Shown here: positions 8,120 through 44,707 of the stretch, piece after piece
Layout: every line of letters begins with the position of its first letter
How positions within the stretch are numbered: the stretch's first letter is position 1
Source: Salinispira sp.
GTDB taxonomy: Bacteria > Spirochaetota > Spirochaetia > DSM-27196 > Salinispiraceae
Direction: 5' to 3'
DNA: 64,000 nt
NCBI GenBank assembly: GCA_965602015.1
Contig: OZ271918.1
Location: forward strand, 288,001 to 352,000
Notes under the pieces: generated by a model
What the model was told of the DNA's origin: nothing
The model's input: only the letters and a program-made list of their open reading frames with translations
Database searches by the model: none
Position numbers and translations under genes: made by a program

Positions 8120-8264
8120 GTGCCCCCAAAACAGCTGATTTGTGCGGTGTAACTCTTTGTGTGAAAATAAAAAAGTGGAGTTTTATCAAGGGCTTCAATG
8201 GATGACAGATAAATTACATCATGAAAAGGGATTACGCTGTTTAAATCAGCTGTTTTGGGGGCAC
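8120..8264. repeat. Inverted-repeat doublet 1 (MITE/REPIN-like, 145 bp)
   Basis: GTGCCCCCAAAACAGCTGAT at 8120-8139 and its reverse complement at 8245-8264; 105-bp AT-rich interior; TA on both flanks. Confidence 0.92.
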
Positions 8265-13452: not shown

Positions 13453-13598
13453 GTGCCCCCAAAACAGCTGATTTAAACTCCCTAATTATTGCTCTTGCAA
13501 AAATGTACAAGCGAACCAACATATGAACGTTCGGCTCATTACATTATTTCTTTACATGATAGTATTTGCACCATCCCCATCAGCTGTTTTGGGGGCAC
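13453..13598. repeat. Inverted-repeat doublet 2 (MITE/REPIN-like, 146 bp)
   Basis: Same 20-bp ends at 13453-13472 and 13579-13598; 106-bp interior; TA on both flanks. Confidence 0.92.
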
Positions 13599-20746: not shown

Positions 20747-21996
20747 GTGTCCCCAAAACAGCTGATCGAATCAACATAACTCTTTTGCCAGTAGTCTTCT
20801 ATGACACGATTACCAGTTCATAGGAGATTAGCATGGCATTAATCCCTCGTTTCTGTCCGTACTCGGACTGTTCTCAGCATCATCGCGACAGAGAATCAAG
20901 CCGGTGCTGGTTTGTCCGAAACGGCCACTATCACTGCCGCCGCCTCGGTTCTTCCCAGCGCTATCGCTGCAAGCATTGCCGTCGATACTTCTGCGAAAGC
21001 GCGTTCCACCTCGATTATCGCGCACATCATCGCCTCGATTACCGGCGCATCTTCTCTTCAATCAACTCGGCCTCCGGCATTCGCGATATTGCCCGGGAGT
21101 TTTATGTCACCGACAAGGTCATTCTCAATCGGCTGAGCCGATTGTCCCGTCAGGCAATCGCTGCCATGGCCCAGTTATCGAATGATCATACAATCGATGA
21201 GGATATTGCCGTTGATGGGTTTGAAAGCTTTGTGTACAGCCAATACTGGCCAAACAATTTCACTCTCGCGGTAGGTTCCGACAGCCAGGTTGTCTATGCG
21301 TGCGACTATGCACAGATGCGGCGCAAAGGGCGGATGACCCCCGCACAAAAGCGCCGGCGCGATGAGCTCAATCGCCGGTATCCTATTGCAGGGGGACAAA
21401 TTGCGCGATCTTTCCGGGATGTGATAAACACCATTCTTCCCCGGTGGAAGGCTTATTCATCTAAGAAGCCATGCTATCTCTTGAGCGATGAAAAACTCGA
21501 ATACCGCCGTGAGCTCTGCGCTCACCGGGACTGGGCGGCGTTGGAAAATGCAGGGCGGGTTATCCATCACCGAACCTCATCGAGGGTGGTCAGGACCACT
21601 GAAAACCCGCTGTTTCCTGTGAATTACCTGGATCGGGAGATACGAAAGGATCAATCCTGTCATGTCCGCCAGAGTGTCCAATGGTCAAAATCGGTGAACA
21701 ACAGCATGGAGCGGATGATGATCTACATCGCCTATCATAACCTGCTCAAGCCGTATCGGATAAACGGACGTAACGATATCAGCCATGGTGAGGTTGCCGG
21801 GTTTGACCGAAGGCGGGTACTCACGTTGGCAAAAAGGATGTTTACACAGCGGGCCTTCGTTCATCATCTGGTGTTGGACATCAGCCAATGGAAGACCTGG
21901 CACCGGATCTGGAAGACACCGGTGAGTGCGCTGAAGATCGATCTACCCGATTATGCGGTGGCCTGAGGAGCGGGAAATCAGCTGTTTTGGGGGCAC
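20747..21996 (+). mobile_element. IS-like element (1250 bp) bounded by the 20-bp repeat as terminal inverted repeats
   Basis: Left GTGTCCCCAAAACAGCTGAT 20747-20766 (1 mismatch) and right ATCAGCTGTTTTGGGGGCAC 21977-21996 enclose one transposase-like ORF. No direct target duplication is seen; the flanks are inverted (AATGAA/TTCATT). Confidence 0.8.
20833..21966 (+). CDS. IS1-like transposase: Zn ribbon + HTH + RNase H/DDE-type domain
   Basis: CPYSDC...RNG...QRYRCKHCRRYF (InsA-like Zn ribbon), GIRDIAREFYV (HTH), IAVDGFESF, LLSDEK..Y, PVNYLDREIR, YHNLLKP. AGGAG RBS at 20822. Confidence 0.75.
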   Translation: MALIPRFCPYSDCSQHHRDRESSRCWFVRNGHYHCRRLGSSQRYRCKHCRRYFCESAFHLDYRAHHRLDYRRIFSSINSASGIRDIAREFYVTDKVILNRLSRLSRQAIAAMAQLSNDHTIDEDIAVDGFESFVYSQYWPNNFTLAVGSDSQVVYACDYAQMRRKGRMTPAQKRRRDELNRRYPIAGGQIARSFRDVINTILPRWKAYSSKKPCYLLSDEKLEYRRELCAHRDWAALENAGRVIHHRTSSRVVRTTENPLFPVNYLDREIRKDQSCHVRQSVQWSKSVNNSMERMMIYIAYHNLLKPYRINGRNDISHGEVAGFDRRRVLTLAKRMFTQRAFVHHLVLDISQWKTWHRIWKTPVSALKIDLPDYAVA

Positions 21997-36326: not shown

Positions 36327-36471
36327 GTGCCCCCAAAACAGCTGATTTTCAGGCTGTAAAATGCTCTATGATAAGCAGAAACGGGCATTTTTCTCGAGCG
36401 CGCGATTGACGGCGCTTAATTCCAATCCTGTGAACAGATTACATGATTTAAATCAGCTGTTTTGGGGGCAC
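36327..36471. repeat. Inverted-repeat doublet 3 (MITE/REPIN-like, 145 bp)
   Basis: Same 20-bp ends at 36327-36346 and 36452-36471; 105-bp interior. Confidence 0.92.
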
Positions 36472-43310: not shown

Positions 43311-43394
43311 CTACCTGCTACTATGACCTCAGCCAGTCATTCCGTCAAATTCGGGATGTAGTTTTCGGGGCATATCTGAAAGCGGTGCCTCCCC

Positions 43395-43547
43395 GCAAGA
43401 GTTTTCAATGTTCTATTACAAAAATTCTGCAAATCGGTTTTGTCCGAGTCATATCTCCGCCATCCACGTGGCATGAAAATGTCTTTCCAGGGGTGTCGCA
43501 ATCACTTTGCACAGCCTCGTATTCGCGCTGTAGCCCCAAAAACGCGC
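43395..43547 (-). ncRNA. Putative bridge/seek RNA of the IS110/IS1111 element
   Basis: Non-coding region between the transposase stop and the right IR. It holds target-matching segments (43533-43543, 43503-43507) and donor-junction-matching segments (43469-43478, 43449-43456), with an ACAGC/GCUGU stem between the target segments. Boundaries are approximate. Confidence 0.72.
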
Positions 43548-44600
43548 TTACCCCTGTCTGGACAAACCCGCTAATGCAGGATCTTTGTAATGCTGTTCTT
43601 TCTGCAATATCCAAAATATTGCTTCTGCTAAGTGCCGTGCCACAGAGATTATAGCAACCTTATGATTTCGTTTAGTACGAACTCTCTTGTAGAGTTTTAC
43701 CGTATGTCGGTTCGCCCAATTTCTTTGATTAAGACAGGTTACATTAGCTGCTTCAGTAAGTGCCCACTTCAAGTATCGATTACATGCTTTCGATGTTCGA
43801 CCATAATGAGTTTTACCTCCGCTCGAGTGAACGCGCGGCGTTGTACCACAGTATGATGCAAAATGTTCAGCGGTCTTAAAGCGATGTATGTCTCCAATTT
43901 CATGCACAATGACTGCGCTGAGAATAAATCCGATCCCGGGAATGGATTTCACCAACTTCATTTCAGCATTTTCATCAAACGCTTCATGCATTCGTTGTTC
44001 GCAGTCGGTGATAGATTGCTTAATAAACGCGAGATTATCGAGCTTGAGTTTCATCATGGTGCGGGTATGCTCGGGGAGTTTTGGCATTACCTTCTTCATG
44101 GCTTCTGTACCTGCTTTTCCGAACAGATCGCTCACATCATTGAATCGAAACCCATATTTCTCGAACCCGGCATGAATTTGGTTCTTTTCACGTATCAACT
44201 CCTGAACGAACTGCATCCGGGTTCGATAGAGTTCTCGTTTATCACGTAATTCTCCTGGTGGAATCCACACAGTAGGCAGTGTGCCTGTTTTTTGAAGTTT
44301 ATTGAGACCTTCAGCATCGAGTTTGTCAGTTTTGTTAAACATGGCCATCATCAATTTTGACTTACCGGCATGAACCAGCAAGGGGTTCATGCCGGCCTCC
44401 TCAATCTCATCCACGATCCAGTACCAACTTCCGATCGTTTCAAGTGCGACTTCCTGTCCCGGCTCAAATTGTTGGAGGAAATCACGAATACACCCGTGAG
44501 AATGTTCTATGCGCTGTGAGGATTTCCTTCCTTTTTCGTCCTCAATTGCAGCCACGGTATACCGTTTATGGCTGTCGAGGGATATAATAATACTACTCAT
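43548..44600 (-). CDS. IS110-family DEDD recombinase/transposase
   Basis: ISLDSHK, VALETIG, KTDKLDA (DEDD RuvC-like); SIPGIG....A.I..EIGDI.RF....FASYCG.TP..HSSGGK (Tnp20 domain); GGAGGAGG RBS. Confidence 0.95.
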   Translation of the reverse strand: MSSIIISLDSHKRYTVAAIEDEKGRKSSQRIEHSHGCIRDFLQQFEPGQEVALETIGSWYWIVDEIEEAGMNPLLVHAGKSKLMMAMFNKTDKLDAEGLNKLQKTGTLPTVWIPPGELRDKRELYRTRMQFVQELIREKNQIHAGFEKYGFRFNDVSDLFGKAGTEAMKKVMPKLPEHTRTMMKLKLDNLAFIKQSITDCEQRMHEAFDENAEMKLVKSIPGIGFILSAVIVHEIGDIHRFKTAEHFASYCGTTPRVHSSGGKTHYGRTSKACNRYLKWALTEAANVTCLNQRNWANRHTVKLYKRVRTKRNHKVAIISVARHLAEAIFWILQKEQHYKDPALAGLSRQG

Positions 44601-44707
44601 TTGGTTGTCCTCCTCCGGTATTTAATATAGACCCTGACTGGCAGGATCTCGGGGGAGGCACCGCTTTCATACCATCACTATCTAATTTTATATTCGCACG
44701 GGCTTTA

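Follow-up and report, generated by a model that had tools for sequence, protein, structure and literature searches.

The window, the whole stretch of 64,000 nucleotides of Salinispira sp. DNA that was analysed, carries on its minus strand an IS1111-type insertion sequence of 1305 bp plus one copy of a TG core (43371..44677), delimited from genome copies and identical end motifs. The element encodes a 350-aa DEDD transposase/recombinase (43548..44600), with about 77 bp of non-coding DNA upstream of the gene and 180 bp downstream. Both IS110 Pfam domains (PF01548 and PF02371) are present, and the NCBIfam IS110 model NF033542 matches with 222 bits against a cut-off of 140. Alignment with IS5075 and IS4321 places the catalytic residues at D9, E54, D92 and D95 and a serine, S260, in an HSSGG motif, giving the DEDD RuvC domain and the Tnp domain with catalytic serine that characterise the IS110 family in the broad sense. 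The transposase profile also matches both PDB proteins of IS621 and ISCro4. Identity is 22-26% to the four classical-type proteins compared, namely IS5075, IS4321 and two more enterobacterial members of the IS110 family with subterminal repeats, against 36-45% between IS5075 and the latter two. The best plasmid matches (about 31%) are haloarchaeal, and of 401 genomes searched in the phylum 2 have the transposase, its own genome counted.

The ends of the element are built around 18-bp subterminal inverted repeats on the left (44652..44669) and right (43377..43394), recognised by sequence comparison. Beyond the left repeat, the end motifs place the left terminal extension and the left core TG (44677-44676), which together form the right donor half (44670..44677), a layout common to 119 homologous loci. 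The right terminal extension (left donor half) and the right core TG occupy 43371..43376. The extensions are 7 bp on the left and 3 bp on the right if the outermost repeat pair is counted, and otherwise 8 and 4 bp; this pair is A-G in 115 of 120 elements, A-T in four and G-G in one. The left target half lies at 44678..44682, and comparison of flanks puts the right target half at 43362..43370. An outward -35-like hexamer (43393..43398, minus strand) would face, across an 18-nt spacer, a -10 of sequence TATGAT that arises when the circle closes, and a TTG hexamer at 15-19 nt spacing occurs in 35 of 50 family members, suggesting that the junction is promoter-like. The circle joint was absent from the contigs of four runs of one sample, a result that says nothing for or against a circle.

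Ten copies of the element are found in the genome, nine of full length (98.6-100% identity) and one interrupted, each copy being 1305 bp flanked by two TG dinucleotides. The interrupted copy (L010, G000:C1:1706983-1709280) has lost about 320 bp and holds an insert with two ORFs, which we take to be an IS3-like element. At another locus (L009, G000:C1:3399400-3402540) the element and 256 bp of its left flank are duplicated in tandem; the new junction fuses the element's right core TG to a flank TG that matches neither guide. The window copy sits between an acyltransferase gene and an HD-domain gene. These two genes are adjacent in the congeneric genome G401, where the element is absent and the spacer is too diverged to reveal the element's target; the locus has no match in G332 or G210. 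A sigma-70-like promoter (43348-43320) precedes the HD-domain gene, about 23 bp downstream of the insertion, and both of its hexamers and the 17-nt spacer are kept in G401.

A first-pass annotation had placed a candidate bridge/seek RNA with four readable guide segments downstream of the transposase, and the five segments that it singled out are present in the window sequence at the positions it gave. Since the single RNA did not fold significantly and had no Rfam match, the RNA was tested on homologues. An alignment of 47 proteins fetched 160 homologous loci (47-56% identity). Both ends were located in 119 of these and in the window, the other 41 loci being without one end; removal of five loci without anchors and 13 with short or ambiguous flanks left 102, which formed 51 clusters at 85% RNA identity, or 50 after L157 was skipped. 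A further 30 loci consist of 29 outside the alignment and the dropped L157.

The predicted RNA is about 130 nt long (43434..43562, minus strand, with estimated ends). It had been read from after the stop codon, but its 5' outer stem begins further upstream, about 15 nt inside the transposase gene, so that the RNA overlaps the last codons and the stop. Among the 50 clusters, 86.6% of cells pair and 21 of 27 pairs show change on both sides, a level reached in 0 of 500 shuffles, while slid controls pair in 31-43% of cells; the structure was drawn from the same 50 sequences that scored it, and its two outermost pairs hold poorly. In the folding check proposed at the outset, the window sequence taken singly does not exceed its shuffles (z -0.48); it is the homologues, with their compensating stems, that supply the support. 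In most members, with the guides left unpaired, the 5' part opens with an outer stem of some length, then has an internal loop in which one A is invariant and a 4-bp stem, followed twice by the order guide-U-hairpin-G-guide and finally by a small 3' hairpin. This last hairpin, which bounds the donor loop (43434..43447), is weakly conserved (65% of cells paired), and the homologue folds give the donor loop no conserved closing stem of its own. Rfam returned 0 matches for the RNA. The RNA model R1 matches exactly the ten element copies; among the 150 of 995 candidates that were scored, these ten matches all lie in elements and no stand-alone RNA copy was seen. The model has no match at five enterobacterial or rhizobial IS110-family loci and a haloarchaeal one (L177-L180, L182, L183). 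A terminator-like match at 43567-43546 overlaps the 5' stem of the RNA and was treated as chance.

The first loop (43488..43556) is enclosed by an outer stem (43556-43550 with 43494-43488) and an inner stem (43546-43543 with 43500-43497). Its 5' guide (43533..43542) pairs with the right target half on its top strand, core G included, and is complementary to target positions +1 to +6 in 50, 45, 43, 35, 31 and 25 of the 50 clusters (12-29 when shuffled; z 4.1-10.9), with no signal at +7 in the same set. Its 3' guide with the core (43503..43509) pairs with the bottom strand and is identical to target -1 to -4 in 47, 46, 46 and 43 clusters. Between them lies a hairpin (43511..43531), found by folding and in the homologues; its ACAGC/GCUGU stem, already noted from the single sequence, proves to be family-wide, with 89% of cells paired. 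When changes are placed on the transposase tree, all 11 changes at target +1 are common to RNA and DNA, 20 of 21 RNA changes at -3 are shared, and the cognate guide-target cells are the row maxima for +1 to +6 and -1 to -4. In the 30 further loci the matches numbered 73 of 76 for the left guide and 65 of 85 for the right, two mis-anchored rows included; at L157 the right guide matches the flank at one position of five.

Covariation of both target guides across the 50 clusters, a check that the first-pass annotation had called for, establishes the first loop as the predicted reader of the target, the 5' guide specifying the right half and the 3' guide the left half around the TG core. At the level of sequence the element has the non-coding RNA with guides to both target strands that is also expected of the IS110 family in the broad sense. 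The guides change along with the target flanks, which supports natural reprogramming. Within the genome, the segment proposed to match the right target pairs with +1 to +4 in nine of ten copies and with +6 to +9 in eight; at +5 the suggested U-G wobble occurs at sites with G, but sites with C or T are mismatched, and the first G of that segment (43543) belongs to the scaffold: in 49 of the 50 homologues it takes part in a G-U pair of the stem. The segment assigned to the left target half and core matches -1, -2 and the core in ten of ten copies, as proposed. In six of the 50 RNAs (L034, L040, L063, L070, L135 and the window) the right-target guide ends in C-U and not C-A-U, which leaves a single core base in pairing; target +1 is T in four of the six.

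The second loop contains a left-donor guide with core (43450..43456), a hairpin (43459..43472) and a candidate right-donor guide in the core register (43474..43482). The base of the left guide at donor -2 matches in 50 of 50 clusters and 3 of 3 tree changes are shared, so the left guide tracks the donor; its other positions served as anchors and are no test of the guide. The hairpin is paired in 98% of cells, and an A-U pair in the window element replaces G-C. For the right donor in the core register, +2 to +4 match in 33, 31 and 33 of 50 clusters (z 4.4-5.6), and over 19 donor types the mean is 2.66 matches of 4 against 1.68, a value reached in 0 of 20000 permutations. On the tree, 3 and 6 right-donor changes are shared, no higher than in off-diagonal cells, so this signal is not separable from shared ancestry. 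A right-donor guide at 43482-43474 is supported on these grounds, though not independently of the tree. In the window element its pairing is the lowest of the 50, with five Watson-Crick and two U-G pairs of nine; in 9 of 9 relatives whose donors carry GG, C is retained at +3, where the window element has U-G wobbles instead. The window copy alone also has A at 43484, two bases before this guide, where the other nine copies and 39 of 50 family members have G. The second loop seems to read the circle junction with the same guide order as the target loop, and is supported less firmly than the first.

The decay of the right-donor guide in the window element and the lack of a distinct tree-aware signal for it would also suit an arrangement in which only the target loop works, processed to an RNA of about 77 nt; the protein would locate the donor by its 18-bp subterminal repeats, with the donor loop a vestige or an accessory. 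The 82-nt seekRNA of ISEc11 alone supports transposition (PMC11187229), and the target loop here (43562-43486) is of similar size. The constancy of the left donor match and the compensatory changes in the donor-loop hairpin speak against it, as does the need of CazIS110-1 for a full-length RNA (10.1101/2025.10.25.684509), and we consider an element working by its target loop alone unlikely.

It had also been proposed that the right-donor guide is the segment at 43478-43469, complementary to the left end of the element. The complementarity exists (nine Watson-Crick pairs of ten, the best of the 50, against 3-7 in the other 49 members), and no family member has a weaker core-register guide. Both would fit a guide that, in this element, pairs with donor +2 to +11 and melts the hairpin, possibly around a second TG where the subterminal repeat begins. 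No position in that register covaries across the 50 clusters (maximum z 1.4), and over 19 donor types the score is 0.95 against 0.93 when shuffled. Near-invariant RNA bases there face variable donor bases and form a conserved stem, the donor-loop hairpin holding most of the 3' half of the segment, and equally good off-register 10-mers occur in 8 of 50 members. All ten left ends located by end motif retain the full extension, although a shortened end would escape that search. A guide in that register is therefore very improbable, and the segment appears to have been misplaced by 8 nt: the core register, shifted by that distance, sets a conserved CA opposite the TG core, an arrangement that the target loop also has. 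Three of the four guides had thus been read correctly. The sequence identical to the circle junction was correctly assigned too, except that its last A is a putative handshake base that follows target +1 in 40 of 50 clusters.

The natural target, which was absent from the first-pass account, is a 19-bp terminal repeat, at its tip, that belongs to an IS1-like element and its 143-bp MITE-like repeats. Seven of ten right flanks run into this 19-bp end, which is common to 126 sites bounding 11 copies of an element of about 1247 bp, 30 repeats of 133-145 bp and four short palindromes. AG precedes all seven insertions, compared with 68 of the 119 ends that are unoccupied, and the single TG at unoccupied ends confirms a 2-bp core. 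The window copy, whose right target half lies outside the 19-bp end, and one other copy are inserted beyond the repeat, each at a guide-matching site; further bases of the repeat are thus not required. The right junction of the copy at G000 3400974, part of the tandem duplication, mismatches the guide. The genome copies show a guide tuned to the repeat tip, a safe and abundant landing site, but a match to the guide is enough by itself, as the window copy illustrates. Chance matches with direct recognition of the repeat end by the protein, which the concentration of insertions at one repeat end and the unremarkable fold of the single RNA might suggest, are largely refuted by the family-wide covariation of guides and targets and by the two copies outside the repeat, and can be regarded as extremely improbable.

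The element of about 1247 bp encodes a 377-aa zinc-finger protein with no Pfam match and a sub-threshold IS1 match; of the Atlas clusters that have a Pfam family, the nearest one carries the IS1 DDE family in 79% of its members. The 133-145 bp repeats have near-identical 19-bp ends and very diverged interiors, unlike the large element, and no target duplication is evident by eye. The repeat family occurs in the window at about 8121-8263, 13454-13597, 20748-21995 and 36328-36470, elsewhere for example at L007 and L008, and in 2 of 41 related genomes searched (its own, G000, and G401). A site of the form RR-TG-AC is common to 26 of 50 clusters and, we presume, resembles palindromic REP-type repeats; the flanks of one subclade (L036, L140, L146, L150, L159, L062) look to us like tRNA genes.

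[quoted passage not shown] The first-pass proposal of such an element with a downstream RNA, a TG core and reprogrammable guides is supported in this respect by covariation.

Two putative handshake dinucleotides, which also went unmentioned in the first-pass annotation, follow the left guides. The bases in the target loop (43501..43502) match donor +1 and +2 in 50 and 41 of 50 clusters, compared with 32 and 1 for target +1 and +2, with one tree event only. Those in the donor loop (43448..43449) track target +1 and +2 in 40 and 37 clusters, compared with 42 and 0 for the donor. Handshake pairs are more numerous after exchange than before in 49 of 50 clusters; the window element has one before and three after. 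Most of this pattern comes from invariant bases and from 1-3 tree events, and it is for this reason that we treat the handshake function and bottom-strand-first exchange as inference.

By analogy with IS110/IS1111 biology, the element would circularise and the junction would create a promoter. The transposase mRNA would then run on into the two-loop RNA of about 130 nt, possibly trimmed to a target-loop form of about 77 nt. Homology suggests that this RNA corresponds to the IS621 bridge RNA with strands swapped and a bottom-strand core CA, and with swapped strands cleavage and exchange would begin on the bottom strands. The dinucleotide that follows each left guide would serve as a handshake guide favouring insertion. 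We lean slightly towards the view that the IS1111-like clade runs the complete IS621 mechanism strand-swapped, with bottom strands first, handshakes that bias insertion and no donor closing stem; within that reading, and with the same narrow preference, the clade of the window transposase would be described as deep-branching and widespread. If this is true, IS1111 seekRNAs, for which a 'reversed order, possibly different mechanism' has been published, would come down to one mechanism, and rules for designing reprogrammed versions would follow. Whether IS1111 and IS110 elements share a mechanism becomes directly testable under the strand-swapped handshake reading. No report of handshake guides in IS1111-type RNAs was found in the text of the literature searched, and three motifs of the clade had no relevant match in the searchable part of the Durrant supplements.

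Among known systems, the element resembles the IS1111-group seekRNA elements (ISEc11, ISPa11, ISKpn4 and IS4321/IS5075; PMC11187229) in its DEDD transposase and long downstream non-coding region, in subterminal inverted repeats with 7+3 terminal extensions (outer A-G pair counted), in a top-strand guide 5' of the bottom-strand guide, and in targeting the end of a repeat or transposon. It differs in its 18-bp repeats, just above the published 7-17 bp, and in donor guides shown by covariation. Four features of the IS1111 group are present, and at the 22-26% identity given above the placement of the transposase in the group is tentative. IS4321/IS5075 reportedly target the terminal repeats of Tn21, and ISEc21 targets IS3-family genes; the window element likewise homes into mobile elements, its host being the IS1-like element and the 143-bp MITE-like repeats that share the 19-bp end.

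With IS621 and ISCro4 (PMC11208160, PMC11208158 and PMC13626964) the element shares two loops, each with the order guide-U-hairpin-G-guide and, here putatively, a handshake dinucleotide, and a 2-bp core. The donor-binding loop typical of IS621 appears to be present, with a firm left donor guide and a right guide that shows complementarity but is not tree-independent. For wild-type IS621 the count predicted here, one handshake pair before exchange and three after, is the one reported (PMC13626964). Transferred to the opposite strand, the layout of the window RNA reproduces that of IS621 (PMC11208158): the first guide has 9 nt and runs through the core, and a U linker, a hairpin and a G linker lead to a short second guide and two putative handshake bases. 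The differences are that the RNA lies downstream of the gene with the right guide first, and not upstream with the left guide first; that the core is TG (CA on the other strand) and not CT; that the RNA is about 130 nt and not 177 nt; and that the donor loop is left without a stem to close it and the subterminal repeats are long. Multi-loop donor regions are noted for IS1111 members (PMC11208160), which fits the missing donor closing stem.

The RNA-guided class is already known and heavily mined, one preprint having scored 32,190 such RNAs, with 86 models (10.64898/2026.10.21.760802, section 2.4), and the window element is a clear new example of it. It is another case in which one mobile element homes into a second one's ends, and no new kind of system. 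It adds an apparently intact and recently spread (ten copies) RNA-guided recombinase, about 25% identical to the classical members compared, whose short RNA and fully mapped guide code make it testable at once.
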